A stretch of DNA of 64,000 bases, taken from positions 372,001 to 436,000 of the forward strand of contig JAYWIR010000013.1 of assembly GCA_036172245.1 (NCBI GenBank), read 5' to 3'. This DNA is from Raillietiella orientalis. Taxonomy: Eukaryota. The position numbers were made by a program, and so were the translations under genes. Within the stretch, counting starts at the first letter, position 1, and every line of letters starts with the position of its first letter. Of the stretch, positions 1-62,000 are shown piece by piece. The notes under the pieces are model-generated. The model ran no database searches, was not told the origin of the DNA, and worked only from the letters and a program-made list of their open reading frames with translations.

Positions 1-2940
1 TTCAAATCTGGTAACATTCCTGATAAGAGTTCTGTTCTTTCATACATTCTTTCATAAATTCGTTCAAATAGTATATAGGTATACTCTTTGAATGCAAATT
101 TCTGAGAGTACACATACAGAATTGTCTGTATTTCAAAAGCATTTTGGTCTTTCGGATAGCGTACGCTATCACTTTAGATTTTTATAGTTTGGAAAGAGTT
201 CAGATTCATCTGGAAAACCCTATGCTATGAGACAAACATAATGATACATAATTTTCATTCATTTGAAAATGCACTTCTATATTCAGCATTCAATGGTACA
301 AGAATGGTGAAGTTACATTATCCCACACATCCAGAACATCAGAAATGCATTTACCTTAATAATACACCCAATCTTGACAATTATTTATCGAAAAACAATT
401 TTAATCAAAATTCACATTTAGCATTTTTAATTGTTGGATTGATCTTACCTGGGAAAATCAGATTTTCCAGTCTTGGTAAACCTTTGGAATACTCCACAAT
501 TTGTTGCAGGCAATCCAATATTAATTCCTCAGTTTCCTCAATTGATGGATGAAATTTGATTTCTGTGTCTTTGTGAAGAACAACCTGGGTTAGTAAAACA
601 GACTGTTTTAAGAACAGGAAATCGTTGTAAACAGAATAATCATTTCCATGCTGCAAGACAAGAAACCAAGGTTAACTGAATTCAAGCATGTAAAATTCCT
701 ACCTGATGGTTCATAAAAAAATACAGGAAATCATCTAAGGAACAGTATACTAGTTTATGTAAACACAGTGACATGAAAGCAGCAATGGTAGAAAAATATC
801 TTTCAATTACTACAGTAGACTTGTTAGATGCTGAAGGCAATAAATGTCTCCAATGTGCAGAATGCTCTTTAACAACTTTTTCACACATGGGAATCCAACT
901 GAATTAAATAAACAAGCCAAGGAATCACTATGTTATTACTTCTTCAGGAACAAAATTGATTTTAAACCATGAAGCAATGGGATTATTTCTATCAAGTATT
1001 TGCATGGTTATTTGTTTACTCATTTTCAATAATGTTTTAAATATAGTAATTTTGAAGTGGACATATATGAATGAATTAAAATTTAAATGTTCATCTCTAA
1101 ATACATAGAACAATGAATGAGTATGAATGGAAAATGAGTTACAAAATGGATTTTTTCAGTGCCATATAATTTTGCCTGTCAAAAACATGCTTTACATGAA
1201 AGTTACATATGTTTTTGGCTATTGTTCATTAAAAGCAGTATGGGTCTCCAGAAATTTCAAGTAATTTTGTATACCTAGTTAGCAGATTGGAACAATGACC
1301 TTGAGAAAATTTACAAATCATTTTCCACATTGATAATTTTTTTGCAAGCATCAGTGAAAGATTTAATGTCATAAGGCAATACTCATTTCAACACTGCTTG
1401 CTTTTACCTACATTGCAATGGAAATTTCAAGTTGGACACAATGTCATTAGTTGTAGGTTACTTTAAAATGAGTTACCAAAGTTAATGATTACCAAGTTTC
1501 AAGTTTATGTGCTGACTGTATATTTACTTTCACAAAATTTTCCATTCATACCTTAAACAGCAAAGTCCCAATGACAATATTTTTCGACAAACAGGTGATT
1601 CACTAATACAATAAAAACTAGAACCACCAAAAGAGCTCGTGTTATAATGTCTCTATATTTACTTATGATGAGTTGTTTGTTAAAATATCTTTTGCCGTAA
1701 ACATCTTTCTCTGAATCTTCTTCCTATTGAATTTTGTTTTTCAATGAATTCTTGAATTTCTTAAAATGAAGTGCCTTTCCTATACATAACAACTAATCAA
1801 ATCACACAGCTAAGTTTAAACAAAAGTTTTCAACTAGGAAATGCTCTTAACATGGTGGAACAGAAATTCTCAATGTCATTGCTTTTACCTATATTGTAAT
1901 GGAAATTTCAAGTTGCATATAATGTCAAAAACAGTAAGGTTTCTACTTCTGATAAATACCTGTTTAGAAGCATGGATTTGGTTTCTGCACAACTGAATTC
2001 AACATAATGTTTAAATGCACTGGCAGACATAGGAAGATTCGCACTTTCCAATTTGCTCACAAATCTAAGATCATAAAAGCTAAAACATTTAATGCCAAAA
2101 CTGCATGACATTCACATGTGATCATACTTTTTACTCCATATTGTATTTAAAGCTACTAGAACTGGATCAGAAACAAAGAATTCATGCATCATGAAGTCTT
2201 GTGAATGAAGGATCATTTGATGCCAAGGAACTGGAGCTCTTACTGTAAATGTTTTGAAATACCTTCCTTTGCGCTTGAGATTTAATCTCTGTGCTTGTTT
2301 TGGATCAAGAAGAACATATTCAAGAATTGATTTTTTCATAGCAGTTTCATAAATTACTTGGATCTCATTTTTTAAATCAGCCAATATACTAGAAAATCTG
2401 GAAGGGAATTTTAATAACAGACATATTGAGACCAAATGCTTAAAGAAAGACTGCATTAGGATTTTAACAATCAGACAATTACAAGTTCAATTTATAAAAG
2501 TTATTATTTTAGTGGGGGACTATGAACAATTTTCTTTTTCAGTGATCCACTAAAATGAAAATGTTTGTTTGGAACACTTAATATCATTGATACATACACT
2601 TTGGAATTTCTGTATTTTTGCAAATTCATGTCATCAACATTCAGCAGCTTTACTTCCTCTAATGGAGCAACAGCATTATCTCCAATTCCATATTGTACAT
2701 AAAGAAAATATTGATTCTCAAAGAGGTCAGTATCCTCCCTTTCATTTGGATTTTTTTGTTCAAAGGAATATTTCTGTCGTTCTGGACTGGTAGGTCTACT
2801 CAGGGCTGATGAGCTTTGAGACACTGATGTCAGAGGAATGACAAATTATTGTACTTACGTAAAGTCAACCATGTTAGTACATTCTGGCTGATGTATTTTT
2901 GGAACGATAGGTTCAACTTCAGTGGGCATAACATAGACAA
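1..2940 (-). CDS. DNAH3: Axonemal dynein heavy chain, N-terminal exons (DNAH3-like); gene continues off the left edge; 5' end approximate
   Basis: Exon translations RPTSPERQ..YFLYVQYGI..VAPLE, MKKSILEYVLLDP..RL..VRAPVPWH and WIPMCEKVV..HWRHLLP..YFSTIAAFMSLCLHKLV resemble the DNAH3-type N-terminal stem. GT-AG-bounded exons at 2128-2397, 1960-2079, 703-898 and 449-650. Confidence 0.8.
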
Positions 2941-6507: not shown

Positions 6508-7413
6508 CGTATACATGCCTACATCTCTACTATGTTTGAAAATCAAATACAAATTTGGGTTATTCTGTATGTAGGAAAACCCTTATTTAAAGTTCCTTGC
6601 TTTGGTCATACACCTCTCTGGAAGTTATCTTTCAACTCATCAGGGATGTCAATTCTTGACATATGCTTCAAAATATGCACCCTACTACATCCAAACTGCA
6701 TATCCGTTTCCACATCCACACCTCTTCCACTTCCACTATCTATCCACGGACATCGCACGTACTTCGAAATAAGCACATTGCCCATCGTATCCATAAGCTC
6801 CAAGTACGCTCCAGAATACCAACGAACGCCACGTACTCCAAAATACTTAAACCAACAGCCAGCGGCTTCTTGGTACGCTGCTGTACTCGCATTAATTTTC
6901 TCGTCTTCCACATTCCATGGCTTCCCGAAAAACTCAGGGCGATTCGCGCTTTGTACCAATGCTACATTTCGATAAGACACCTTCATCCCTAACTCCTCGG
7001 CCATATTTCCGACAGATAATCCTAATGTCAAAAGTTTCACCTTTAACGCAAGACCTTTTCACTTTCACATATCCGAAATACCTTGCCATTTGCTCGAAGT
7101 TCAATAACTTCAATAACTCCGATAATTTCCAATACTGCTCGAAGTATGTAAACATCCACGAACAATTTATAGCATCACCATCCATAACCATCTGCGAACT
7201 ATAGTGCGTAGCTTGCAACAAGCCAGATCGTTCCACCACGCGAGTTACTTTGCCATACTTCCAACGAGGGTTCCTAATAATTCTCATACACCTACGCTTA
7301 GGATTAAACCTACGTCGCCTCTTGTACGTATTGTATCCTTTACGAACTAGCCTCTTTCGCTTTGAGACGTACGACGCCTTCCCTAACTTCCGCTTTCGGG
7401 AGTGATACGACAT
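6505..7413 (-). pseudogene. cap: CRESS virus capsid protein (frameshifted)
   Basis: Arg/Lys-rich N-terminus MSYHSRKRK..YKRRRRFNPKRR; FEQMARYFGYVKVK, KYVRCPWIDS and C-terminal YRIT/LYLIFK segments typical of circovirus-like capsids. Frameshifts near 7040 and 6555; internal stop at 6606-6608. Confidence 0.82.
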
Positions 7414-7655
7414 AGATACTACCATTCGGCTGCTTGACAACCTACTGCCATTTTTTCCATATCCCCCCACCCCTTATTACTCCGACCCGGGTGGTGGTGA
7501 GCTACGCCCACCCGACTTACCAGATTCTTCCACGAGATCGGGTTACACCAGCCACAAAAAACTGGAAGCCCTCAAGGCTTTCCGCATACTTCAAGCCCCT
7601 CACGATTGCGGACTTTCGCCACATGGCCACTATCGCGTTGCCAAGATCGGTTACT

Positions 7656-7720: not shown

Positions 7721-7778
7721 CCACCTAAGACGACCGAGCCACAGTCATAACCTTCAGTGAATTTCAGCAACCACCACT

Positions 7779-8705
7779 ATGCCTTACGGTCTTTTCTTTA
7801 ACTGGTGTGTTACATTCAGTAATTACACAGAAGAAGAATTCGTTAAAATTAAATCACGGTGTCGCAGCAACCGCAAATTCTGCGTTTTCGGATGTGAAAC
7901 CGCATCCACCGGTACTCCGCACTTACAAGGTTACATGCAACTCAAAGAGCCAAGAACCCTGCCAGGACTACACAGGAAACCGTTCACCAAGTCACATTTG
8001 GAGAAAAGCCGCTGCACAGCACTTAAGGTACTGCACCAAACAAGATAAAACTGCTTGCACTTACGGTGCAATTTCAAATGCCGATGAACCAACATCATAC
8101 GAACAGGTTAGTCACGTGACCGCATTCTCATGCCTAACCCATTTCTCTTTCAGATTCTCGAACTCTTCGAATCTGGCGCAGAGGAAAAACTTATACTCAA
8201 AAATCTTCCAAAATTCTACGCCAGAAGCATTAACTTCGTCAAAGAATGCTTTCGGTTATCCAGGAATCGCACCCACACAATCGCACCCCCTAGCGAATCT
8301 GCGCCTCAGAAAATGACAGATGGATATATTCGACATTATTCGCAAACCACCAAGTGAAAGAATCATATACAGGTTCTATGATACGATAGGCAACGCAGGC
8401 AAAACAAGGCCAAGTTCTTATACTTGAAAAAAGGAGCCATTTACATGCACTCTTGCCGGAAAGCAGATGCAGCCCATATGTATCATGGTGAATCCATTAT
8501 AGTGGTGGACTTCACAAGAGACAATCAAGAGCGTGTACAGTACGGATTTATAGAGTCCCTCAAAAATGGCATCGTTTTCGACTCGAAGTATCAGGGATCT
8601 ATCAAATACTTTGACACACCCCACACCTTCATATTTGCCAACTGGGAACCTGATTACTCCAAAATGAGTTCCGACAGATGGGTTGTCAAGAACATTTCCA
8701 GACCC
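7779..8705 (+). pseudogene. rep: CRESS Rep (HUH endonuclease + SF3 helicase), spliced, with 3 frameshifts and 1 stop
   Basis: Motif I WCVTFSNY, motif II TPHLQGY, motif III YCTK; LRK*Q (probably WQ); Walker A GNAGKT (8389-8406); Walker B IIVVDF; motif C IFAN; SSDRW. Confidence 0.92.
8107..8153 (+). other. Putative 47-nt spliceosomal intron in rep
   Basis: CAG|GTTAGT donor, CTAAC branch point at 8134-8138, TTTCTCTTTCAG acceptor. Removal joins ..TSYEQ to ILELFESG.. in frame. Confidence 0.75.
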
Positions 8706-11700
8706 ACAGAGAGCCATAATACATCGTGGACTATGAATGAGGAAGGATCCATTCTCTTATATTTCGGAAAAGGTATCGATGATCAACAGCGATTCTGTCA
8801 ATATTATCTCAGTGAATTTACTTTCAATGACTTATACCCGGAATTGTCAAGAAAGTGACAAAGAGGGACTTTCATTCCTGAGTTCAACAAGGAGAGCGAC
8901 AACAAGTGTTTAGTGCAGAAGTATGCCCCCTTTGTTGCTCATGACGTGAAAAGAAACCTTAGCAACGCAGAAATGTAATTTATGACCTCAGGGATTCCAG
9001 GACAGAGCATCCTGTGAGCTATGAGATCTGAAATCGTTGGTGAATTTCAACTGTATGAGGCGAAACTAGGGAATCGACAAATTCTTTGTAAATCCTGAGT
9101 AGCTGCTTTCATATTTCTTTCATTCGCTTTCCACACTAAATTAAGGGCTACTCTTTGATGACATCCATCCAAGCAGCTTTCTAATTCAGACCAATGGAAG
9201 GTAGTTGACGCAAAGGTTTAAAATCACATAGGATCATAGACATATCTGCATCAGAAGTGGGTGCTCGCTTAATTGCTTCCTGTGTATATCCGTAAATGTG
9301 CAATCACGTCATACCATGAAAGGGAAAAGTGATCGTAGTTAATGCATTCATTCGTTGAGGTCATTCTGCATCTGTTTCATCGTTAAACTACAGAGGATCG
9401 TAAATCGTATCAAAACATCACGCATTCTTCAAATTCAATCAAAGTTTTCCAGGGAGGATGAAGGATTTGGCTTATTATAGTTGAAAGCACAAATTCATGT
9501 ATGGCAGAGAATTTGAGCAGAGGTTTTGAGCAGAGAATGACTGGATTATTGTAACCTTGTTTTATCTTCGATTCTCCAGATCTTTTGGAACTATGATACG
9601 ATATTTATAAGAAGGGCATGCTGCTCAATGAACATGTTGGTTAAAACAACTGGAGATCAAAATACGAAGAGTCACGACGTTAGGAGTACTCAGAAATGGT
9701 ATTCGGTCTGACATAACTGCAACAGTGTAGCGATTCTCATGAACTGTTTCGACTGATTACAAGTGCCAATGAGTCACTGGTTTTTTAATTTCTTTTAATT
9801 CCTTGCAAAGAGAACCATTTGTGTGGGCAGGGATAAATACGTTAATTCTCCGTTAATGTTGTTTACGTTAATACGTTAATGTTGCTTCCATTCAATCTTC
9901 ATGTTGCTTCCCTTTCCTATCTGGTCCTTCTTTGTGCCTACACCTCGTTTCTGGACGCATACAGATCTCTCATGGGCAGTGGTGCTATTCCTGTTTATTT
10001 TGTCCGTAGATTCATCATCGTTCTAGCGTCTTCACGAGCGGAAATTCTCAGTGTTCCAGTTACTATTAGGTACGATCAGCATGAAAGCAAACACAGAACA
10101 TCAAACATATCAGCATGTCAGGAGAGAACAGCAGAATTCTACAATGTGACGGTTTGATTTTATAGATTCGATGACACGCAAAAGCCACTTGGTGGTACTG
10201 CCTGAGACGAATTCTCATTTTGCATGCCCCAGTCCTTTTGTTTCACTTAAATCGAAACATAGACACAGAGTTTCTGACAGATCAGGCAATGATTATGCCC
10301 CAGCAAAATGACTTGTCCCTAGATGGAAGTCGGAATGCGAAAGTGATCAAACTGCTTTTTACCGAGATGCTTTCCTCTCCGTTGAAGTTGTGAGTTAAGA
10401 CGTATCATGATTAGAGAACATTTAACACACCTCTTTAAGATTTTTCCATAGAATTGAAAACTTGTTCTTTCCCTGTCTTGCTGAAAATTATTCAGGTGAT
10501 ATCGGGCCACGCGTAGTCTTGGAATTCTTTTTAGAAGCCACTATCATCCCATTTTCAGTTTAGATAACTGTTAAATTATTGTTTCCAATATTTTTCATGC
10601 GTTTGAAGAAAAAAAAAGGAAAGTCTAGCATCGGAATCTCAAAGGGTTACCCCCATCTACTGCACTTCTTCTATTTGTATGAAGGAAGCAAGCAAAGAGT
10701 TCCTGTACAGCATATATCGTTAACAGTTCTGAAAGCAATTTCAAATAACAGGGAAGGAGAAAAAACGGGTACTGAAGAGCGAGATGTGAAACGAATGAGA
10801 TAGCAGAAGCTGAAGTAGGCGAAGGAGGAGCAAAGAGAGTTCCACTTGAGGAGTGTGAGAGAGTCTGCTCTATTGAGCAGTTTCCAAGGATACCACGGTC
10901 ACGGGCTTCTGAGGATTAAACGCTCAACAAGTCAGCAGAGATGCTCGAAAGAGAATGCAGTGGATTAATGAAACAGCCTTTACTGACGTGACTCATCCTT
11001 GCTTTGCAGTTGTTGTTTTTTTCATCAAAGATTCTGGCTTGGATACATTTAAAGGGGGCTGCAATCATTCATATATATTTTTAGATGCACATGACAACGG
11101 ACTGCATGCGAAATTTCCATGGATAGTATTCTGGAGCTACAAGACGAATCGGAGTTTCCTTTGGTTACTGTGCACGTGAGGAAGACGGCAGTTCCATTAA
11201 GAGGGAATCGAGAGTGAAATCGGCAACGCACTTGCAAACTTCCCTTCCTTTGCAAGTTGTGGAACGACCACGCACAAACACCGTTCGATTTTCACCTTTT
11301 GACAGTCATTCTGCTTCTTTTGTGGAACCTGCATTCCAATTAATCCCGTGTTCACAACGAATGCCCCGAAGAACTCCTCAGGCACGGCCGCCAATAAATT
11401 CAGTCCACATTGCCACCGATGTCCACGCGGTTTACGCGAAACAACCTTAAGAGAATTCCAAACGGAAATTCATTTCGTTTGCTAGTTTTTCATTCAAATA
11501 GTCGATGTGCGATTCAATGATGATACTAAATCTGCGCTGGACTTCCGTCTTAAGATCGTATCCGAAACCGAACTGAAAGCAAATGAAAGTGATGTTTCTC
11601 AACGAGAAAGAAATGGAACATATGAATAGCGATGAAGAGTGATTTCAGTGTGTACGAGAAATAGTAGAGTTTAATTCTAGAAGAAGAAATGAAAATCAAA

Positions 11701-20596: not shown

Positions 20597-20712
20597 GCAC
20601 ACGCTTCGGCTGTACATATACTAAAATTGGAACGGTACAGAGAAGATTAGCACGACCCGTGTGCAAGGACGACACGCAAAATCGTGAAGCGTTCCACTAA
20701 AAACAAAAAAAA
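20597..20712 (+). ncRNA. U6: U6 snRNA retroposed copy (probable pseudogene)
   Basis: Full-length U6 match (ACATATACTAAAATTGGAAC, ACAGAGAAGATTAGC, GACACGCAAAATCGTGAAGCGTTCCAC). A-rich tail instead of a T-run; flanking direct repeat AAATCCAT at 20588-20595 and 20710-20717. Confidence 0.9.
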
Positions 20713-25455: not shown

Positions 25456-28249
25456 CTCGGGCTAGCTGCAGAGGGGAAGGGATGAGGGGAAGGGTTGGAC
25501 CTTGAGAGTGACGGCAGAGGCGCCCTTCTAAGAGCTGGGCGTCAGCATGGCAACGGTTCTGAGTCTGTTGCGCTTCTCCGTGGAGACCAGCCCCTCGATG
25601 CTTGCGCTCCGCCCGCGAAACGTCGTGCAAGGAGCGCTCATGACGTCTTGCGCTGCCCCGGAGGGTCGTGAGACTCTACCCAAGGCCCGCTCAAGGGAAC
25701 GCAAGGATAACAGGGAGAAGGGGACACAATCTTGGAGGCGTCACGAGCAGCGATCCTCCCAGGGCGGCGGAGCCTTCCGTCCTGTGGGCTGGGAAGAACC
25801 TGCGAAGCACCCCGCATCCGAGCGGAGTTGGCCACTCGCTCGTGAGGAGCCCTTCCCATCCTCTCTAGGCGCCATGCAGGGGTTCACCGACGATAAGCGG
25901 AGAAGGGAAGAAGAAGGCGCGTGGCCTCCCGGGAGCTCCCATTCCAAGCTCGGGCGGCGGCTCTGTTGCCTTGGCAATGGTTTTGCCACCCGTGACAGGA
26001 GCAGCTCGGAATCGTGCACGCGCACCCGCAGAGCTGCCGGGCTCCCTGCAGAGCCCGGAAACCGTGAGCCACAGCCGCTTTCGAGTCCTCCTCCGGAGAG
26101 TGTCCGTGCCCGCGTCTGCGGACAAGGAGGATCGCTCCCGACGCCTTCCCTGCAGTTGGCACGCCGAAGAGCACGAACCGCGAAGCCGCTCCTCTCCCCA
26201 GCCTTCAGGAGCGCTGGCGACGGAAATACGACGTTGGCCCCACCTTTCCCTCTTCCTCCTCCATTCCTCTTCCCAGTTTGCCATAGTCCTGGGGAACGCG
26301 GGCAGGCGTCTTGCCGATCCTGCGCGATCCGAGGGAGATCGGCAGGGCAGGGGGGTCTAAGCTGGAACGGGGGAGGAAGACTGCAGCAGCAGGGACCCCA
26401 TGGGAAGAAGGAGATCCGGACGATTCGGTCCCAATGCGGCAGCAGCACCAGCGTAGGCTACCCCAGCTTCCACGGAGAAATCCACGGGAGCCTCACAGTA
26501 ACCCGCACCTGCGAACAGTCCGCAACCCTGCCGCAGAGGATGAACGCGGCGCTGCTGCCGCCGTGTCGAGGAGGAGGCGAGCGGGCGGCAAGGCATCGGC
26601 GGCGGCCTCCCCTTACCGACCCGGATTTCCGGGAGAGCTTCTACTCCCTGCTCCCGGAAGGTGAGGAACCATGAATCTTGGAACCCTTGGAACCGCCCTG
26701 CCGGAGTCTATGAAGCGTGGGTCCTCCCGGTCCATAATGCTCACGCAGCAGATCTTTTGTGCAGACGCAGTCCGGCGCTGCTGAGGTTCTAAACTACCTC
26801 TCCTATCCCTGCTGGAGGAACTGAAGTTCAAGGGCTTAAATCGACGATCTTTCACCCTCTGTCCCCCACTCATAGCAACGGGCGTTTGCATCTTTCGGAG
26901 CAAAGGACCAGGACAAACGCAGCAGCAACCGCTCGGTTCCACGGTTTCCTCCACGGAGACAATTTCGGAGATGCTGCACATCGAGTCCTCCTTAAGGGCT
27001 CCAGCAGATGGCAGAAGATGCACAGCGCACTATGCGACCATCGTTTGCGCGGGGGGGGGGGATGAATAGGTCGGAGATGCAGTAGGAGGGACTGGTTCTT
27101 GAGGATATGTGTGTCGCAGGGAGTCGATGTGGAGGCGATTCGATCCCACGGGACGCAAGCAGGGCTGCCAACAAACGTGCCCACTTGTCCTTCGGCTGCT
27201 GAGGATTCTGAGGGCTCCAACACTGACTCTGCCAGGAAGGCCAGGAAGGTCGGCACGCGCAGGAAGTGCAGGAGACCTCACGGGAAAAGCGGGCCACCCC
27301 AAGGATGCCTCTGGAGGTGACGAGAAGGTGGTCAGCTGAACGGTCTGCTACCAAGGAGTACATGGCTGCGTGCAGGTCGTGGTCGAGGAGGAACCTGTAG
27401 ACCCCCCTGGCGGGGCACGCAACAGGAGGTCGTGGTCCGGCGCGGCCGGGAAATCCGAACACAGGTCTACCACAAAGCCGAAGGGAGGCTAGGGAGGAGG
27501 GGTGCGCGAACCGCGGCAACCCCATCAGCTGGACCTCGTCCGCGTTCGCCTTGCTCAGACCGCAGGAGGGAGGGTCCTGGGGAAATCTGGTTCCCCGAGG
27601 TCGGGCCGGACACTGAGCACTGAACGTCACAGGGCAGGAAGAGCAGCGGGAAGATCCGCGGACGGAGGTGCAACAAGTCCTCTCTCACCTCTCGCGCTCT
27701 CTTCTGGATAAAAGAAAGACGAGACTGGAAGCCGTCATTTTCGCTCCGGTACCCTCCCGCGATCCAGCCCAGTGCCTCTGGAGCTGCCGCGACCGTAATT
27801 CTGGGGGAGCCGGGAAGCGATCACTGACCTCTGTCGGGATTTGAGGTCGGACCGGCCATCAAAGTGCACCGGGAAGGAGGAAAGGCAAAGAAAGGTCGGC
27901 GGAAAAACGCCGGTGACCGCGAGAGCGACGACGTACCTCGTGCGCGGCGCTCCGTGCTCTTCAGGAGGCGCGCGGAAGGGGATGGAAAGGGATCGACTAT
28001 GGGGAGAGGGGGAGCGTGTCGCATCGCGCGAGCTTGTCTTAGAAGCCACTGACTCGCAGGAAGCGCTGCGATCCGCCTCGCCTTTCTGGTCAGCACCTCG
28101 CGGTGCACAGGGCGGCTACCTGCCCACCACGGGGAGCTTCGCTCATGCCGCGGAGCTGCCCAGCTTCCGGCGCAAGAGCGTCTTCGGGGAGGGCTGGGAC
28201 GACGCTAAATGAAAGAGAGGGGGACGTCGTGGCGGAAGTCTTTATTCTA

Positions 28250-29414
28250 TTAATAGGAGATAGCCATGAAACTCCATTTCCCTTGGAGCTCCGTCCCATT
28301 CGAAAACAAGAACATCCTTATCGGCTCCCCTTTGTGGATGTCCTGCATGATGTCTCGTGCTTCTATCTTCGAGGGCCCCTCGAAGGTCTTGGGGGTGTAG
28401 GGGATGGGCATGCCCACAGGGTACATGCTGATGAGCATCTTCTCACCAACCATCAGCTCTACTTCTATTATGGTTGCTACATTGAGGTTGTGCGGACTCT
28501 GTGGGAACGAACGGCTTATGGACTGCAGCGCGTGGGTCAGGTGGGGCTCACCAGAAGGCGGTACTCGATGAACCTGGGAACTCCCTCGTTTCCTGAAGTT
28601 AAGAAAGTAGGCTTGGGTACTGCCGTCCAGGTGGCAGGGACTGTCATCCCGGAATGCTTCCGTGTTACATCCATGGTCAAGTGGAGGTCGGCCTTGGACA
28701 TGGTGAAGAGCAGCGGAGGGATCAGCGCCAGCTTGCCACTGAAGCCTCTCTGCAAGCTGGAAAAAACCGGAGGTGATATTCCCTTTTCTCCCTCCTATCC
28801 CTCTTCTGGGTCCCGTCCCTGGACCGGGAGGAGGCACGGCGGGAGAGCTACTCACGTTTGAGTGTGGTAGGCGTCGTTGACTTCGAAGGAGCCGGATCTG
28901 AAGGAGCTGACCGTGGCGACAATGTGGCCGACCTCTGTGTCTCGATACTGCCCGAGCTGACCGCAATGGAGACGTGAGAGGGAGATGCGCGGGCCTCCTG
29001 CCCCCGTTCCCTACCTTGGATCTCAGCAGGCAGTCTTCATCCTGCACTCTGACCGAGTACCTGCCGTCTTTCCTTGAAGGAGGCTGCTCCAGCCTGCTGC
29101 AGGACGTGGTCATTGTCGGCTTTGAATTCCTGAGGGCGGTTTCGACGGAGGATGGCAGCTTGGGAATGGCGCTGGGCGCCGCCAAGACCTCGAGGACGGC
29201 GGAGAGTATTGGAGAGGGCAAGTCAACGCTACACCCCTCGAGTGTTTAGGAACGCGCTTCTCCCTCCCCTGACCCTCCTCGGAATCGTCATCCCTCCCCC
29301 CTTTCCTGTCCCTCCCGGGAGCGCGCCGCGTAGACACACCGGGACCGTTACCTCCAGGAGGCAAGCGAAGGCTGCCAAGAAGCGGAGAAGCGGAGTCGGC
29401 GGCATCGTCGCCAT
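28250..29414 (-). CDS. Predicted 5-exon secreted protein of unknown function (263 aa)
   Basis: Exons 29414-29352, 29188-29015, 28956-28856, 28756-28552 and 28498-28250 join into one stop-free frame. Donors GTAACG/GTAGGG/GTGAGT/GTGAGC; signal-peptide-like N-terminus; TATAAA at 29479-29474; AATAAA at 28246-28241. The first acceptor is an atypical GAG. Confidence 0.62.
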
Positions 29415-29473
29415 CGTCGCGCAGGAGAGGAGAAGCCGCTTCGGAGGACTGCGCACTCCGGTGGGCAGACACA

Positions 29474-29479
29474 TTTATA
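29474..29479 (-). promoter_or_regulatory. TATA box about 29 nt upstream of an Inr-like GCAGTC
   Basis: TATAAA with Inr-like A at 29450, upstream of ATG 29414. Confidence 0.5.
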
Positions 29480-29829
29480 CATCCCGCCGCCCCTCTGCGA
29501 TCCACCCCCGCCTTCTCCTCTGGAACCAGAGCGAAGCCCGGCTTCATTAGGAGGAGGGGGGAAGGAAAAGGAGGCACATGTGTCTCGAGCTCGTTATATC
29601 GAGAAGCGAGCGCGCCCGACATTGCCAAGGTCACCATCGGAGGCGCACTCTTTCTCACACTTTCCTCCTTCCTCCTCTTCTTTTTCTTCCTCTTATTTTT
29701 CTCCCTTTTCTTCTTTTTTCTCACCTCCTTTTTGTCCACTCGCTTCACTAGCATCCTTCGAGGATACCTATCCCCATTCGGCTCGCCACTTCGAGCCTTT
29801 TTTTTGCTTTTTCTTTATCTGCTACTGTC

Positions 29830-29938
29830 GGGACCGTTACCTCCAGGAGGCAAGAGAAGATTACCAAGAAGCGGAGGAGGAGCAGACTCGGAGGCATCGT
29901 CGCGCAGGAGAGGAGGAGCCGCTTCGGAAGACTGCGCT
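29830..29938 (-). repeat. Paralogous copy of the 5'UTR + signal-peptide exon + donor
   Basis: Homologous to 29340-29455; encodes MPPSLLLLRFLVIFSCLLE|GTAACG (29897-29841). Confidence 0.7.
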
Positions 29939-33072: not shown

Positions 33073-36000
33073 TTGAAACCCGGTTGCGCCGGGACGTTTA
33101 TTTTTTCAAATGAACTTATCTAAACTGTGACTGGACCAGTAGTCCAGCCACGCCCTAGAAAGTATCAGCTTGTCGGGCTACCGGTGCGCAGACCGGCGCG
33201 GTCAACCTCGGCAGCAGAGGGGAGGGGGAATGAAACAAAAAGAAAACAAAAAAATAAACAAAACTGGAGAGGGAGCGGGAAGGGATCACTGTCTGCTGGG
33301 AGGGTCCGTCATCCTCTGGAGGATGCCGGCAAGCTGTTGCTGAATGGTGGATGTCAGATGGGGCCATCGCGTCGCCATCCTCAGAAAGCGGGCGGCATAC
33401 ACGGTGGTATCCCTGTCGCTGGATCCTCCCGTCACTTTACTCCATGCCAGGACGATCCCGCGTAGGCAGCACAGGGCTGCAAGCGACGCCGCTGGAGGCA
33501 GGGCGTCTCGGACGAAGAGGGGGTGCAAAGCGTCTCTGGGGTTGCCTCCGGGGATACCCAGGGCCGCGGAAAAGCATTCCCACAAGGGACGGAGGGCAAC
33601 ACAATCCACTAACAGGGGGGGGAGGTATTCCCTCTTCCCGCACCTGACACAATTGGGGTTGACATCCCCCCGCGTCCAGTGGTGTCGGCGGGCGTTGCAA
33701 GGGAGGCCCCATTGCAACACCAGGAGTGCCGACTGTTGCCACTTCATGGGGAGGGTGCGCGAGTCCATGAGCACCGAGGCCACTCAAGTAGCTCGCCCCA
33801 GCGCAAGAGTCCGTGTGGGATGGTCCTCGGGGTCGCAGCTCTGGTCAGCTGACCCGTTCTCCAAACCCCGATCTTCTGTACCCTGTCGGCGATCTTGAAG
33901 GTAACCTCCCATTCTTTCACGACGTCGCTGCCCAGATGTTTCCATAGGGTAGACAGTACCGCAGCAAGGGAGGTTCTTTCTGCCCACGCTCTCCTTCGGG
34001 GATCCTCGACGATTTCTCGGAGCGTACGGTGGGCGTGCAGCCCGAACAGAGCTATTCGCTCGTGTTGCGGGCTCTGCTCTCGAGTCATCGCCCACGTGCG
34101 AACGGTTTCCTGCAGCCAGGCAGTACCATTCGCGAGGCGTACGAAGATCGATCCCGTGTTGGTCTTCACGAGTTTGACCGCCCTCCGAAGCCGAATTCCG
34201 CAGTGGCAGATGGGCCTTCGGAGTGCAAAGTAGGACGAGAGTCCCGCATTGCCGGTGGCCTGCTCGACGAGGAGACGTGCAGGGACGCACCAGGGGGTGC
34301 ACCAGTTCTTTGCCATAAAGGCAACTATCCGAAACCGGAGCTGAAGCTCCAGTCGCTCCAGCGTCAGGAGGCAGACCACCATCCCGACGCGGAGCGCACA
34401 AATCCGCAAGACGGACTCGGGGTCTCCCTCTTCCCCAAAGGGCGATCCTTAGGAGGTCCTTCGTCCTTTTTCTTGACTCCGCTGAGGGGGGGAGAACAAA
34501 AAGCAAGGGGCGAAGTAGCGGGGCCGCAAACGCGTTCCAAGCCGCAGCCCGTTCCTGCAGGAAAAACCTGCCGTCCTGGAACGGGCCGATCGCCGCCTGA
34601 GCCTTCTGAAGGCAGCCGGACCACGCTTCCGCAGGGGAATAATCCCCCAACAGCACACCAAGGTATTTGAAGTACCTCACCGTGGGGATCCCCAAACGGA
34701 CCCAGTTCTGATGCCCTGCCCACGCCGCTCCGACTGGCATTACGGACGAGTTCGCCCTTTTCACTGTTAGTCCTGTTCCCCTATTCAGCAGGTCGAAGAA
34801 CTCCTCGACCGCCGAAGCCGGGGTGGACACAGGAAGCAGCAGCAGCAGGTCGTCCGCATATGCCGAAACCGCAGGTGTACCGGGACAATCGCGCGGCAGG
34901 AGCGCCAGAGTCTCCCTGTACGCTCTCAGCACCAATTCGAAATAGGCGCTGAAGAGCAAGGGGATCAGGCTGTCTTCCTGCCATATGCCGCGTCGCACCG
35001 GTACGCCGTGCACGGTCTGCCCGCTAAAAAAGACGTTAATGAGCGCATCGCGCCAGCTGGAGCGCAGGTAGGCCAACAAAGAGGCCGGGAAGCCCAAGCA
35101 TTCCAGAAGCTCCAGCAGGAGATTCTGGTCGACGCTGTCGAATGCTTTACGCAAGTCGACAGCAACCGCAAGGGCCCCCTCCCCCACCCGACCATCCCGT
35201 CTCTCACCGACGGACGCACCGGAATTCCGGTTGCTCAATAAGCCCCTTCCTTGTTGGAGCTCTAACCATGTGGAAGCGTGGAACAGGTTCGCCTCCATGC
35301 TTCGCCCGGGAAGAGCAAATGTCTGTTCCGAGCTGATGAAGGAGTTGGCAACCCGTCCCAGACTCTCTGCCACAGCTTGGCTAGCAACTTGGCGTCCGCA
35401 TTCAATAGTGTGATGGAACGCTCAGATCTCCTCCCTTAGGGAGGAGCCGCACCTTTGCTGAACAAAACGAGGCGGGAACGTGACCTGTCTCGCGAATCAG
35501 CAAGGTGAGCTGATGTACCAGGGGAGTAAGCTCTGCCGAGAAAGTTTGATAAAACTCCGCAGGCAGGCCGTCCTCCCCTAGAGCCTTCCGCCTCTTGAGC
35601 TTTCCGATGGCCGAGATGATCTCGCCCATCGTGAAAGGCTCGTCGAGGCTCCTTTTCTCCTCCTCCCCGGTCGCTGGAGCACCTTCCGGAAGCAGAAGTC
35701 GTGAGACATCCTGCTCCGGAGGCGCCCTCGCGTACAGAAGGGAGTAAAATTTTCGTACAATCCCGCGCTTCTGAGTAGGAGCCGAGTGCTCCCGGCCCTG
35801 GTCGTCTTGCAAGCTGGCCGACCCGGATTGCCAGGTTTGCCTCTCGGCTCTTGCTCGATACTCCGCTAACCTGCGCATGTCGGGGGTTCTCGCGTAACGT
35901 CGGGCCTGAAGATAGCACCTTTCGTTACGCGGCCCCTCCCCAAATCCCACAGGTAGGCGATGCAAAGGGAACTGTTTGCAGGGATGCTGCGCGGGTATGC

Positions 36001-41050: not shown

Positions 41051-41879
41051 CGCATGACCCCGGACGCGGGTCTGCGTTCTAAACTCTACGGTCCATGCAA
41101 CTGCAGCTTCCTGTACTTCAGTGGGTTCCCTGAAATGTCCGCTCACTCACTCGCCACCACCACGAATCGCTTCGGAAGGTGCGTTTCCCAGCCCCGACCC
41201 AGACCCCGCTCCATCGCCGAACATGCGCTGGGTCGGGGTAAGTGGCCTTGGTTCCCAGAGGAGTCATCGAATGCGTCCAGTAGGTTTCTCTTGCTGCGTG
41301 AAAACAGTAGCACCCGTGCAAGGCTCCATACTTCGGGTCCTGTGCGCAGCCTCCTTTCGCCAACTGACTGCTTGGCCCTTGCGGGCGAAGGAGAGCGGGT
41401 ACGGGATCGACCTGGCGAAAATCTTTTCAATCCGCCCGCGTTGGCGATCGCGCGGCTGTGGCTGTCTGGAGTCGAGGGCTCGAACCTCCTCCGGGAAGGG
41501 CCCACGCTGGGAACAGGGGCTGCGCCGGGGGTTTCCCTTCCTTCCCAGCAGGGTAGCGCTATCGGTCCATGGGCTTCGGGTTCGGCGGTGGTACTGGTGG
41601 GGCGCGTGGGCTATTTGGACGCCGGATGACCGTCGTTGACTGGCCGGAACTCGAAGACCTTCCGGGGTCCTTCCAGGAACTATGAGCAGCGGTTACCTTC
41701 CGAGTTCCCTCCCAAGAGGAAGAGGAACGGACTCCTTCCTCCGGAACCTTCTTGGATGAACCCTTTGGACGTGGAGCTCACCAGATTGAAAAGCTCCGTT
41801 GACGGCACGAATCTCAGTTCGGACGGAGCAGTTTTACTCCACCGCGCTCTCTATCGAGGTATCGATCGACTACGGAAAG

Positions 41880-42780
41880 TGCTGAATCAAGTTACTATTG
41901 TAATTGTTTATTTACACCACATTAAATAAAATATTCTAGAACAAATATTATTTGTTTAAAAATTATAATTCCAATAAAATCAATAATTCATTCACATTTT
42001 TAAGGTATCACAAAGATAAAAAGCAATCTAATAAATTATATACGACACCGAGAAAAAACGAGAATAGTTAGCCGATATATAGATAGAATTTTGTTTACTA
42101 TCGTTGCTAAGCAAATTAGAAGAACGTAAGTCTATGTGCCCATCTCAAACATTGATCGTATGAACTTGCGTTGCGAGTATAAGGTCAAAACATTTGCCAA
42201 ACGCATGGATGCGTCCATAGCAGTCAAAAGGTTCGTGGCGTCATATATAATTAATGTGTACATTGAAGATTGTAAAAAATAAATAAATGCGTTTATCATG
42301 TATATTAATAAAGATAAGAAGTATATGCATTAAATGAATATATGAATGTGGAATTAGAAACAAACATATTCACCAAGCGATCTGGAAAAAGAATCCATCC
42401 ACTGTTGAGCAAGCTCCAGTTGCTGAGTGATGGAAAGGACACGAAAAGGAATTACCAAATGACTTTTTTTTGTTTTTGTTTTTTTTAAATTCGCTTGCTG
42501 TTTAATTTGTTTCTCCACTCTTTTTAATTGCCACCGTTATTTTTCACATTTTTATAATTCGATATTTATATGTTCATTCAGTATATATTTATTATGCATA
42601 TAGATATATATTTATTTTATATATATATATATGTGTGTAATATCAATCATCATGTGTGTTCATGTTAATAAATATTAATAAATGAGTATGTTAAAATAAA
42701 TATGCATATGAATCTTTATACAGATATATATTTTAATATACATGATAAGAATTTATATTTATTTCTTGTGATCTTTCGAG
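41880..42780. repeat. AT-rich island with dispersed RCATTTATTTTTYAYRATC motif (related islands at 38260-38400 and 43690-44120)
   Basis: Motif copies near 38330, 42270 (reverse), 42755, 43760, 43925 and 44090. Confidence 0.55.
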
Positions 42781-45700
42781 GTTTCGGCGTTCGGAATTTG
42801 TTCGTACAGGAGGTAGGAACCAATGCCCATAGTCAGCCAGGAGAACCTGAGGTCAGCTGAGGCGATTTCTGCTGGTTAGCAGATGTTTGTTTCCGGACCA
42901 AGAACGAAAAAGGGAAGCAAACGCTGCAACATATACATATACATAAACCCTATGACGTCATACGTGAAGGACGTAATGAACAATTTCAGATGGTACAGTC
43001 GAAATGCACCTCAGTATTTGTGATTCTGACACCATGATTGCCTAAGGGAATTGCTTTGTCCACCGAGGAGTAGCCGTTGAAGTACGAGCGCAGCCTGGAC
43101 AGGAGCAGACAGCTGCATGCTTTCGTCGCTCTGTGCGCTCATCCTCAGGGCTGAACGAAGGAATCTCGATGCCTCTTCCAGAGCTATGATCCTCCAGACG
43201 CGAGGATTCACCCACACGGATCCAGCAAATCTGAAAAGGGGAAACGAAAGTGCGTTCTGGCGACGGGAAAGCTCTCGCTGGGGAGCACCAGTCCGGGAGC
43301 GCGCGGGCAGTTTGCTCGAGTTCCCACTTCATGCTGACTGGACCGCCTTCGTGCTGACAGCTGCAGCCTGCGGGGGAGGATCTGAGAGGGGGAACACCTC
43401 CCCCTCGTCCGCACACTCGACGGGAGCGACATTGGAAGTCGCCAGAGGGCACAGTAGAGAGAGAACCTTCCGAATCCTTCATGCCGGCTTCCCTGTGGGA
43501 CGACTCCAGCAAGCACCGAGCTCCGTTCCACTTCTTCCGTCCTGAAGGATTCCATCTGCGGAGGAGCATCTCGATTTTCAGGCGGTGCCCTCGAAAGAAG
43601 GCCCTCTCGGATCGAAATCCCGGAACTTTTTCAACAACTGATGGATTCCGCTTTCGGGATTCTAATCGTTTGGTAAATGCGCGTGTTTAGAATTCGGCAA
43701 TCACATATTCATTTCACTTACGTTTCTCGTATGTATAGTAATGTATTTAATAAACTTGTGCATTTATTTTTCATAATCTTTAATGTATGTTTTGATTGAT
43801 TATGTGTATTAATGCATATCGTTAGTTAAATCAATACTATGTATGTTGATAAATGTTTATGTATACCTATGTTTAAAATGAATTTGCATGTTAATCTATA
43901 CATTGATACACATAATCAGCATACATGTATTTTTATGATCCTTATAATGTAAATTAAAGGTATGTATTTATGCATATTATTAATTATATTAATAAATATG
44001 CATGTTGAATAGTCCATGTATTGAGATAGATAATAAGCTTGCGTATTTATTATGTGTACTATATTTAAATACATAAAACGCACTCATGTACGCATTTATT
44101 TATTTATTTATTTTTACGACACTCCGGTGTTCGGGATTTCGAGCAGGACCGCTTCTTGGAGCGGCAGCTGCCCTCCTGGCAGACAACGACCCAGGACGCG
44201 GGGGATCCAGCTGCTCATCCGGACTACCGCTCAAGGGAGATCACTGATGCCCTCGGGCCAGCGAGTGCCTTGCTTGGGTCGGAGGCTCCCGCCCCGAGGC
44301 GGTGCCGTGAGACCTACGCTCGTCGCAGTCCGGAAGACTTCTCACCGGGACGCGCGCGTTCCTCCTCCCCGCGGCCAAGGGGGCCCAGTTCCCCCACTTC
44401 GAGCGGGAGCCGCCCTCCCACCCCTCGATCCGGAAGGAAGCCGGGGACGGAGACCGCTCCCCGCTGCGCCAGGCGATCCAAAAGGAGCCGGTGGCTCGGA
44501 GGGAGGAGCTGCCGACGAGCCGGCGTCCCTCCGGTGCTCTGGAAGCTCGCTCCGAAGGTCGCCGCTCTTGCAGCCCGTAGGCGGGGGAGGGAGGAGGGGG
44601 AAGAAGAAAGAGGGATCAGGGGCAGATCCTCCCAGAATGGACCCGGACGGGAAGTTGGCCGGAGGAAGGAGGGCTGATCGTCGCGCGAGATGACTGAGGA
44701 CGCGCCGTTGCCAGCATCCACCAGGCCGCCTGCCACGTGGCGGCGAGGAGGGAGGGCGGAACGTCGTGGCCCGGTGACCGCTTTTCCGCCGATGCCCTTC
44801 GCCACTGCAGATGCCGGAGCTGCCTGAAGGAGGAAGAAAAAGATCCGTCGGTTTCCTCCCCGCTGCTGCCAGTCAACACGGAGATTGGAGGCGGGGAGAT
44901 CTGGGGAGGGGGAGACCGCTCATTGAGAGGGCTGACCCCTCGAGACAGTCACTCCCCACCCCGCCTTTCCCCCCCAGATGGCCTCGTACGCCGAGGGAGG
45001 AGCAGAAACGGTCTGCTCAACGGCCCTGCGGCTTTCGCGGCTGCGACGACAGAGTCGTCCCGCCCTTCCGGTTCCGCTCCCTCCGGTGGTGCGCCTTCGG
45101 AGCGCGGCGCTGAGGCTGAAGAATGAGCTCCCTTCGAAGAAAGTCGTAGTGGAAATCGTGCTTCGAGGGGCGCAGCGTTCCCCCCCTGAGGCTGCTGCCT
45201 CTTGAAGACCTCAGACGCAGGTTGACGCCCCTCCCCTTCCTCCCCCAGCAGGCTGCGTCTCCAGAGTGACGGGAAGTGTGCGCTGTTCCCTCCGCAGCAT
45301 GGCCCCTCAGGGTTCTCTCCAGAAGAGAACGGGGAAGATGCTATTCCCTTTGGAGTTCCCGTGCCAAAATGTAAGGAGTACCAACACATACCTCCGTCCG
45401 GAGTCTCCTGGATTCGTAGGGCGGTCCCCTCTCGGGATACCCTCCCCCCCAGCCTGAAGAGCTACCGCGCACCCCCGGTTGTCACAGGCGTCGCTCAGAG
45501 CCCTCCGTAAGGCGCCCAACAGTTCTTCAGCACTTGGCTAAACCAAAGAAAGGAGAAAAGAAGCAGCTGGCAGGAAAAAAAGGGAGGTGGGGGGAGAAGA
45601 AGACCCTAAAAGGGATTCCCCGCCATCAACGCGTGTTTGTTGCCAACGACGACTCAAGTGCGTGCCGCGCACGCGAAAAACTTTCGATCAGTTCGAGAAT

Positions 45701-59094: not shown

Positions 59095-62000
59095 TCAAAA
59101 GGTATCCATATTGGAACCATCAGTATGAACACTGACTGCAGTGGCTGCCATTCCACGAGCCATGCTTGGTTCTGTGTTACGTCTCTTCACAGATTTGTTC
59201 TTCATCTTTTTCAACATGGTGGCCTGGAAAACATCGTTTACCGGGCACACACCAAATGAAACTTTACTTTCAAAGCCGACTTTAAGACAACAACGTCTCC
59301 CACAGGCTGGATCCAAGGTTCACCATCCACTTGAATGGGAAGTTCTGATAACAGCTTAATTTTGATGTGACCACCCTATAACAGGCAGGCACACTGAATG
59401 AGGAACCAGAAACGATGCAGGGCATACCTGAGCAATGCGCATTGCAGAGCGTAATCCTGACTGTATTTGTCCTAGATGTACTACTCCAGTAACACCAACT
59501 ATTTCCAGCATTCCATCCCAGTGATTAGGCTTGTTAAAGTTGTCTTCCTTTTCAGGTCCCCAAGGATTGGCCCCAGACCCCCAGCTCAGAATATTCAGTA
59601 TTATGATTCCTTCAAGCTGAGGCAACTCAACCATTTTGCCATCAACTTCCAAACGAATAATTTTATGCAAGTCCTTGCATAACTTACGTCCAACCATTTT
59701 TCTCAAACCCATTTTCACATACACACTTTTATTGTGCAGTCTGAAATGGAGATTCAACAAACATTTTTGCACATCATCTTGTCAACCTGCTGTTGAATTT
59801 GTTGGGATTTTCTTCTCTTGCGTTATGGAAATCTAAACACAGATCAGCATCTATGCCAATCCCGAAGTAATTGTTCATAACGAAAATCTGTGTGTTGTCT
59901 TCATTGCTTTTACCTACACGTTGACAAGACATCCTATTAAAATACGAAAAATGGACGCTCACCTTGTTGCAGCATTATGTTATTTGGTAAAGAACGCTCT
60001 TCCACTTTTTCATCAGTATGGAAAACAACAGTCCAACGATCAAGCCGTATTTCCTCTGCATCAATCACATCTTGCAATAACGATAGCGGATCCTCTCCTC
60101 CTGTGTAACCAGTGCCCCAATTAAGGACTCTGGCTAAATCATTGCCTACAATCACAGATGCATTTAACGTACAGAATAGGGGAAAAAAGGAGCTGTTAAC
60201 CTGTTCCTAGAGGAACAATTGCGCAAGGAGGAGAAGAACATTCTGAATCTTGCCCCACATTATCCAAGCATTGAAGAACCCAGCCAATAGTCCCATCACC
60301 TCCACAGACCAAAATACGATAGTCTTTGATGTGTCGAAATACATAGAGACTAAAGTAATTGAAATGAAAAGAATAAGATAGCAGTCAAATTCAAAGACTT
60401 ACCCTGGAAGTGGACCTCCACTTTCCAGGTCATAAACTTGATGTGGATTGAGAAGTTTTCTAAAGCTACTAATTAATTCCAAACCCTGACAACCACCAGA
60501 TTTAACATTAACAAATACTAGTAAAGGTCTAACAGTAGGGAGAATCATGCGTGGAATAATATTAGGCAGCATTAACACTAAAAGAAACAAAAATAGCTAC
60601 TGAGACTTGTCAGTAAAAGGTAAAAAAATTACCAATTAGCTGCTTGTCCTCAATACAACAATCAGTTAAGGTACATACTGCTTTCACAGCTTCACTTGAT
60701 TCTTCATATGTAATAACCATAGAACCATATTCATAATATATAGGCCCAATTGTTTTGAATTTATTTTCTAACAAATAATTTAACAATAAATGACAAAACC
60801 GCATTTACCTCGTCCAAGAAAATTAAGAAGAATCTGTTCGTACTGGCGCTGCGAAAGATTAGCAGGTAAGTTTCCAACAAAAAGTGCAATAGTATTGCCA
60901 TGAGGATCTTGCTTATGATGCAGATAAAATCGTGTGAAATCCATTTTTCTAATAGATTCTTTGCTTATCTGTTTTAAAAGTTCCCAAGGTTGTTCATCCA
61001 ATCCCATCAAACGTTCAACTGTGTGAAGGTAAATGCAAATATTATATATTTTTTGTGTACCCGGAGTAAAATAAATAAATAATTACTTTTCCATATTCTT
61101 TCTAAAGGACGGGGAGGAGGGAACATGCACTTTTATGATGAACTATTTCAGATAAACATGGTAAGTAACGTAATAAAAAGACGTAACGAAAAAAGTTACA
61201 ATGAGCTCCAATAAAACAATCAATTATAATGACAATGTTTACAATTTTCGAATTATAAACGCTGTAAAAGACAGCGAATTAGGAGCGAAAACATTTTCAC
61301 AACTTCTGTGCACCAATAGGACCACTGACTTTTATGAAGCAAAAAAACTCCGCGTTAATTAAATTTCCTTTTCCTCAAAATTAATTAAATATTAGCTAAA
61401 TCTTACTAAAAATAGACTCAATTCAACTTTACTTACAATCCAGATGTTACCATTCCCTAAAAACAATTCAACGTAACAGTTAAGGTAACAACCAGCATGC
61501 ACATAGCAACTGCCTTTAAAATCCATTAAATCATTAACACCGAAATTTGAAACAATCATAAGAAACGAATTCATACGACTTCATTTCTGTTCATTTTAAA
61601 ATAACTTGGAATTCATTTCATGATGCTGCAATAAGACAATGACAGTTGTACCTCCTTTATCAAGTGAAACTTCATACAACTGATAATTGGAAGACTGTTC
61701 CCCTTCAAGCCCAAATTTAACAAATGCAGCATCAATCATAGCTGCAACTGTAGTCTCAGAGGAAACAGGAATTGAACATGGACTGTCTATCAGATTAAGT
61801 TTTCCAGGATACACATCGATGAAACCACTATCATTGCCTTCATCTCTAAATAAGAACCAGAAACACATCCAGACACATCAATCTACACTCACTTAAATCT
61901 CAAGAAAACTGCTGGTCGTTTGCCATCCTGCCGAGAAAGTTTTTGTACTGGGTCTGGGTCAGAAATAACGACTTCATCTTCAGTGTAGGCATCAGAAAGG

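Follow-up and report, generated by a model that had tools for sequence, protein, structure and literature searches.

A stretch of 64,000 nucleotides (nt) from Raillietiella orientalis (GenBank assembly GCA_036172245.1, contig JAYWIR010000013.1, positions 372,001 to 436,000), hereafter referred to in its full length as the window, carries on its minus strand, at 29414..28250, a gene of five exons and four GT..AG introns that is placed between fragments of long interspersed nuclear elements (LINEs) and not within a repeat. The introns fall in phases 0, 0, 2 and 0, and the spliced frame of 792 nt specifies 263 amino acids and a stop codon. The gene had been proposed in a sequence-only reading of the same DNA, and the components of that model, namely the five exons, the TATA box, an initiator-like (Inr-like) site, the ATG, introns of 163, 58, 99 and 53 nt with their phases, the stop codon and an AATAAA signal, were all found at the places it had assigned to them. 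Positions given below are those of the window and the features of the gene are on the minus strand.

Organisation and splicing of the gene

A TATAAA box lies at 29479-29474, 60-65 nt 5' of the initiation codon, its position suggesting a promoter function, and is followed by the Inr-like CAGT (29448..29451), the A of which, at 29450 and 29 nt past the initial T of that box, is the transcription start predicted from the sequence. The ATG at 29414 opens the coding part of exon 1 (29352..29414), whose 21 codons encode most of a putative signal peptide and end at the donor GAG/GTAACG. Intron 1 (29189..29351; 163 nt, GT..AG, phase 0) is predicted, with the acceptor CTCGAG; an acceptor ending in GAG had been pointed out as a caveat by the sequence-only reading, as had two cysteines in the mature part of the product, and both are seen in the sequence. 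Exon 2 (29015..29188; 58 codons) carries a VLA/AP cleavage-like site together with both of these cysteines, and the predicted intron 2 (28957..29014; 58 nt, phase 0) runs from AAG/GTAGGG to GGTCAG. Exon 3 (28856..28956; 101 nt) is followed by intron 3 (28757..28855; 99 nt, GTGAGT..TTCCAG, phase 2), exon 4 (28552..28756; 205 nt) by intron 4 (28499..28551; 53 nt, GTGAGC..CCACAG, phase 0), and the coding part of exon 5 (28250..28498) comprises 82 codons, with an NGT sequon, and the TAA stop codon at 28252-28250, next to which stands a TAG. The predicted AATAAA poly(A) signal (28246..28241) begins 3 nt past the stop.

The 3' half of this model is borne out by a transcript. Only one public run, here called X1, contains part of the stretch, and the kind of run is not on record. 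A 504-nt contig of this run aligns to 28247-28498, 28552-28756 and 28856-28902 with 503 of the 504 letters identical; it thus ends at 28247, spans the whole of exon 4 with 0 differences and reaches into the 3' 47 nt of exon 3. The joints between the aligned blocks omit exactly 53 and 99 nt, which are introns 4 and 3, and the omitted segments have CT..AC ends on the plus strand, equivalent to GT..AG on the minus strand, so that the strand of the transcript is fixed as minus. Two of the four predicted introns are therefore confirmed to the base, and since their borders had been set without RNA data, the confirmation is independent of the prediction. Junction reads at all four introns had been named as the check on the model: introns 3 and 4 are exactly bridged, while introns 1 and 2 lie outside the contig. 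If X1 were DNA, the joined form would still derive, by retrocopying, from an mRNA that had been spliced. The sole difference, at 28309 in exon 5, changes TTG to CTG and is synonymous for Leu.

For the two 5' introns, frame-compatible GT-AG alternatives exist, amounting to nine pairs for intron 1 and six for intron 2; one of the alternatives for intron 1 uses an acceptor 48 nt upstream and would add 16 residues to the product. The introns chosen have the best donors (GAG/GTAACG and AAG/GTAGGG) as well as pyrimidine tracts. The frame of exon 3 meets a stop at 29013-29011, opens only at 29010 and contains no ATG, so that some intron ending there is required.

Coding signature

The gene lies in a GC-rich island of the window, in which stop codons are rare (only 0.019 per codon) and long open frames are plentiful, 12 frames of at least 263 codons being present in the six frames of an 18-kb sample of the island. 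An open frame is by itself weak evidence of coding under these conditions. The sequence-only reading had described the gene as invisible among the open reading frames (ORFs) listed for the stretch, and this holds in part: its exons 2 and 5 are contained in a single frame of 331 amino acids that remains unbroken across introns 2-4, and this frame is lost among the many meaningless long ones.

The base composition of the codon positions provides a more discriminating signal. In the spliced frame, GC at the first, second and third codon positions (GC1, GC2 and GC3) is 0.50, 0.45 and 0.73, respectively. Each of the five exons has its highest GC at the predicted third position (0.62/0.52/0.81 in exon 1 and 0.48/0.55/0.76 in exon 2), the introns are flat, and the five exons keep to the right frame despite intron lengths that shift it (163, 58 and 53 nt). 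All open frames of at least 140 amino acids in the island, 106 in number, served as the background; their GC3 excess has a mean of 0.01, a standard deviation of 0.07 and a maximum of 0.17, and the excess of the gene (0.25) is above every one of them. Exon 5 gives the strongest codon periodicity and third-position GC signal in the whole island. The combined fraction of Arg, Gly, Pro and Ala in the product is 0.26, compared with 0.40 +/- 0.06 in the products of those background frames. The two other frames of the spliced sequence contain 15 and 2 stops. The gene is thus a real coding gene rather than a chance open frame, and the claim that a genuine, intact and spliced coding gene stands among decayed LINE fragments is upheld by the X1 junctions together with the GC3 signature. 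The GC3 pattern and the ordinary amino acid make-up further indicate, as far as composition can serve as a guide, an established gene under protein-level constraint and not a newly opened frame.

The predicted product

A single hydrophobic peak is present in the product, at residues 9-27 (2.17 on the Kyte-Doolittle scale with a 15-residue window). By inspection, the N-terminus has the layout of a signal peptide, with an n-region extending to R11, an h-region from F12 to L20, a c-region of E-V-L-A and cleavage predicted before A-P; the positive charge of the n-region, the length of the h-region (for which 7-15 residues are expected), the polar c-region and the small residues at -3 and -1 agree with the usual heuristics. 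The hydrophobic leader with a VLA-AP site described in the sequence-only reading is accordingly recognised by inspection and hydropathy as the only hydrophobic segment of the protein. The predicted mature part has 239 amino acids, a mass of 26.7 kDa and an isoelectric point of 9.0. Cysteines occur at residues 18, 51 and 74, the latter two in the mature part, and the NGT sequon is at residue 248.

Structure models were obtained with AlphaFold from single sequences, one exon at a time, for exons 5 and 4. The model of exon 5 has four strands and one short helix (mean predicted local distance difference test score, pLDDT, 58) and its fold matches were not above noise, while that of exon 4 is a long beta-hairpin (mean pLDDT 54). 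A beta-rich protein had been postulated; both models have that character, and with mean pLDDT values of only 58 and 54 it is plausible but weakly supported.

Searches for relatives

The queries for the homology searches were the exon pieces, of 58-82 amino acids, with the 331-residue read-through frame added for Pfam; remote homologues could be missed with queries of such length. Four exon pieces and the read-through frame matched no Pfam family at E <= 10, and no fibronectin type III (FN3) or immunoglobulin-like (Ig-like) profile was among the matches to these queries at that threshold. The best E-values of the exon pieces in PHROGs (0.15) and NCBIfam (0.2) were both noise, and nothing better than E = 0.9 was retrieved for them from the sequences of the PDB. 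No relative was found by word-indexed protein searches with exon 5, exon 4 (against longer proteins) and exon 2, nor in viral contigs with exon 5 or metagenome contigs with exon 4. For exon 5, an exhaustive phmmer search of 1.84 billion representative sequences returned 0 matches at E <= 0.001, a result that concerns this exon and not exons 1-4, and the best score in the ESM Atlas (0.78) was at noise level. Families of secreted toxins and pore-formers, among them aerolysin/ETX-MTX2 and actinoporin, were also considered, and the exon pieces had no Pfam match to such families and no PDB match better than E = 0.9. The suggestion that the product could be an effector, a toxin or an immune protein found no evidence in favour of any of the three.

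The exons gave no match to the reverse transcriptase, endonuclease or ORF1 domains of LINEs, whereas the neighbouring frames match RVT_1 and zf-RVT. Within the window, a tblastn search with the spliced product found only the gene itself and a duplicate of its first exon (see below); further matches, at 48.4-49.6 kb with E-values of 0.17-2.7, lack colinearity and were discounted as chance. The product of the gene is not in the protein collection searched, in which the gene therefore seems to have no annotation.

A duplicated first-exon module

A second copy of the 5' untranslated region and first exon, together with 12 nt of the intron, lies upstream of the gene at 29829..29937 on the minus strand, 485 bp upstream of the first exon, and is 83% identical over 115 nt to 29340-29454. 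The similarity sets in about 4 nt 5' of the predicted transcription start and extends 12 nt beyond the donor. The duplicate has its own ATG at 29897, its 19 codons repeat the signal-peptide layout of exon 1, the two having the pattern M-P-P..L-L-R-F-L..C-L-L-E in common, and its donor at 29840 reads GAG/GTAACGGTCCCG in phase 0; a TATA box is absent. As the donor is in phase 0, the duplicate could splice to exon 2 and act as an alternative first exon, and it could also be what is left of a tandem duplicate, or an RNA-derived copy. An explanation of the module as a spliced-leader RNA-like element was also considered and was dropped, the module having an ATG and a signal-peptide frame. Next after the duplicate on the minus strand, at 29650-29828, is a tract of 179 nt that is 83% purine.

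Genomic setting

The GC-rich island is a block of 38 kb, from 20-21 to 58 kb of the window, with about 60% GC against 30-42% in the flanks and with a CpG observed/expected ratio of 0.88 against 0.53-0.76. At about 41750-44250 it is broken by two short AT-rich stretches in which GC goes down to 19-20% (250-nt bins). LINE fragments with a mutual identity of 65-74% occur at 21.2-25.45, 33.07-36 and 50-56 kb and match RVT_1 and zf-RVT of Pfam as well as the reverse transcriptases of R2 and of L1 ORF2p in the PDB. These copies, 26-35% diverged, are still GC-rich and have not drifted to the composition of the flanks; This retention could be due to GC-biased conversion, to the separate insertion of divergent lineages that were already GC-rich, or to some other cause. 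A Pfam search with the 106 island frames retrieved RVT_1 (two frames), zf-RVT (two, under the curated cutoff) and one sub-threshold match to RRP7, and no second gene was recognised by Pfam among these frames.

The segment containing the gene, of about 7.6 kb (25.5-33 kb), is bordered on either side by the 3' end of a decayed LINE copy, the two copies being convergent, and has no other copy in the window except the 115-nt duplicate of the first exon; a comparison of 27.5-30.5 kb with the window likewise matched only itself and the duplicate. No copy of the gene was found in the window beside the other LINE fragments (21-25, 33-36 and 50-56 kb). The co-occurrence of paralogs with this LINE family, which had been put forward for examination, is thus not seen in the window, where the LINE fragments recur without the gene.

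Conserved animal genes flank the island on both sides. On the left, an exon of an axonemal dynein heavy chain was identified at 2112-2486 on the minus strand (PDB phmmer E 5e-10, DNAH3 1.5e-8); the longer region 2112-2845 (minus strand) resembles the N-terminal dynein region of DNAH3/7, and its two adjoining open stretches, which are in different reading frames, may be separated by a short intron or by a frameshift. On the right, exons of a diacylglycerol kinase theta (DGK-theta)-like gene, also on the minus strand, were found at 59356-59781 (DAGK_acc, 6.6e-31) and 60780-61082 (RBD_DGKtheta, 2.8e-7). With conserved genes of low GC3 in both flanks, the island is intergenic. The GC3 of the gene (0.73) is far from that of the conserved host genes of the AT-rich flanks (0.22-0.39), and a contrast in composition with the host genes, which the sequence-only reading had raised for the introns, is to this extent supported.

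Interpretation and alternative explanations

Taken together, the locus is a genuine animal gene, transcribed and spliced, that is likely to be lineage-restricted and to encode a secreted protein, with no detectable relatives. Transcription would start about 30 nt 3' of the TATA box, and residues 1-24 would constitute a cleavable signal peptide of the Sec type. The mature protein, of about 27 kDa, basic and predicted to be largely beta-stranded, may contain one disulfide (C51-C74) and one N-glycan, and its C-terminal exon may fold as an Ig/FN3-like sandwich. The product would then leave the cell and act by binding a ligand or a surface rather than by catalysis, the latter preference following from the failure to find a signature of a catalytic family.

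Several points weigh against this interpretation. The transcript support consists of a single 504-nt contig, at a depth of 6.8, from one run of unrecorded kind; the contig spans neither exons 1-2 nor introns 1-2, for which other splice choices exist, and the acceptor of the first intron is GAG. The signal peptide is judged from inspection and hydropathy only, and a Glu stands at the end of its h-region. As no homologue was found, constraint on the protein is suggested by composition rather than by an evolutionary test such as the ratio of nonsynonymous to synonymous substitution rates (dN/dS), and the proposed binding function is reached by exclusion.

The uncertainty at the 5' end bears directly on the possibility that the gene is real and its hydrophobic N-terminus is not cleaved, the product being membrane-anchored or intracellular, or that translation starts elsewhere with a different exon 1 or acceptor. 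The predicted acceptor of intron 1, with an alternative that adds 16 residues, the Glu that closes the h-region and the second possible first exon 485 bp upstream would all be compatible with it. The hydrophobic core, of about 9-13 residues, is nevertheless too short for a membrane span, the residues at -3 and -1 are the small V and A, and the same layout recurs in the duplicate first exon, so that we regard an uncleaved or differently started product as unlikely. Somewhat less likely still is a cargo or foreign gene that is not a long-resident gene of the host and came with the GC-rich LINEs, with a virus or from some other donor. Such an origin would suit the contrast in GC3 with conserved host genes 20-30 kb away, the position between LINE fragments and the want of relatives among annotated proteins, and a circovirus-like Rep fragment in the same window (described below) shows that foreign DNA has entered the region. 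It is opposed by the four spliced introns, which are at odds with a retrocopy or with transduction by way of RNA, by the lack of a second copy with the other LINE fragments of the window, by the failure to match viral contigs, PHROGs or metagenome contigs, and by a composition that equals that of the local island (about 60% GC). The proposal of a cargo borne by a transposable element or virus, which had been among the original candidates, consequently finds little favour: the segment is unique in the window, its four introns have been kept, and no viral or mobile-element relatives were found in the searches described above. A more elaborate version, which we consider improbable, would make the gene the founding member of an unseen secreted family that arrived or arose with the LINE island and has two alternative signal-peptide first exons. 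The gene could have been acquired horizontally from a donor of high GC content and have gained introns afterwards, and the sharp limits of the duplicate together with the purine-rich tract would then be the outcome of RNA-mediated copying at the 5' end of the pre-mRNA of the gene itself.

Two further explanations call the long history or the coding capacity of the gene into question. A very young gene arising de novo from GC-rich repeat debris rich in long open frames would account for the orphan status in all searches, the stop-poor surroundings and an expression that appears to be low. However, a new frame in DNA of 60% GC should give GC1, GC2 and GC3 of about the same value and a product rich in Arg, Gly, Pro and Ala, whereas the values of 0.50/0.45/0.73 and the fraction of 0.26 set the gene apart from the surrounding frames; moreover, all four of its introns are canonical, and it is furnished with a TATA box and a poly(A) signal. 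A recent origin is in our view very improbable. A spliced non-coding or junk transcript, with a frame of 263 codons open by chance in GC-rich DNA, is likewise very improbable. The low frequency of stops in the island, the dozen frames of at least this length in the six frames of 18 kb, the 331-residue frame that passes straight through introns 2-4 and the absence of a homologue from the searches would be in keeping with chance. Against it stand the third-position periodicity, which is right in five out of five exons, a GC3 excess higher than in all 106 island frames, the ordinary amino acid make-up, the signal-peptide layout at the start of the frame and the synonymous nature of the only difference in X1.

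Comparison with known systems and significance

Taxonomically restricted ('orphan') genes for secreted proteins are common in animals. The present gene resembles them in being short and divided into several exons, in having most of the predicted signal peptide set apart on the first of these, in the lack of a detectable homologue and in its modest expression, and differs in that only one member is in hand and no family can be defined. In the 'two-speed genomes' of filamentous pathogens, genes for secreted effectors occupy repeat-rich compartments, and a small secreted orphan in a transposon-rich and compositionally distinct block, away from housekeeping genes, is reminiscent of that arrangement. 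Here, however, the host is an animal, as the axonemal dynein and DGK-theta-like genes of the flanks attest, the island is GC-rich and not AT-rich, and nothing shows a pathogenic lifestyle. The position of the gene, 3.6 kb past the 3' end of a LINE fragment on the same strand (reverse transcriptase ORF at 33787-35421, minus strand), also recalls the cargo of LINE 3' transduction or retro-copying; unlike such cargo, the gene has retained its four introns, possesses a TATA box and a poly(A) signal of its own, and does not recur alongside the other LINE copies of the window.

The gene illustrates that a gene model drawn up by inspection of the raw sequence can be accurate to the base, and that repeat blocks of high GC content can conceal real and expressed genes, stop-poor DNA there flooding any view based on ORFs with meaningless long frames. 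The GC content of codon positions separated the gene from 106 neighbouring frames and could be a simple filter in similar regions. With exon 5 unmatched in about 1.8 billion representatives, the product may represent a new secreted fold or else an extracellular factor that evolves rapidly. Since orphan secreted genes are frequent in animals, the biological weight of the gene will stay modest as long as neither a function nor a family has been identified for it, and the find is a sound but fairly ordinary one, lineage-specific genes being common in animal genomes (such genes in mammals are the subject of PMC5554394).

Other features of the window

In the AT-rich left flank, a fragment of an endogenous Rep resembling those of circoviruses and of circular Rep-encoding single-stranded (CRESS) DNA viruses was identified at 7761-8048 on the plus strand (Pfam Viral_Rep, E = 5e-11). 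Close to it, a helicase-like frame (8382-8858, plus strand) and a frame with an Arg-rich, capsid-like N-terminus (6934-7473, minus strand) were noticed by eye and had no Pfam match at E <= 5. A full-length match to the U6 small nuclear RNA (84.5 bits, model positions 1-105), which may be a gene or a U6 retrocopy associated with LINEs, was found at 20597-20703 on the plus strand, at the left edge of the island and about 500 nt ahead of the first LINE-like segment.

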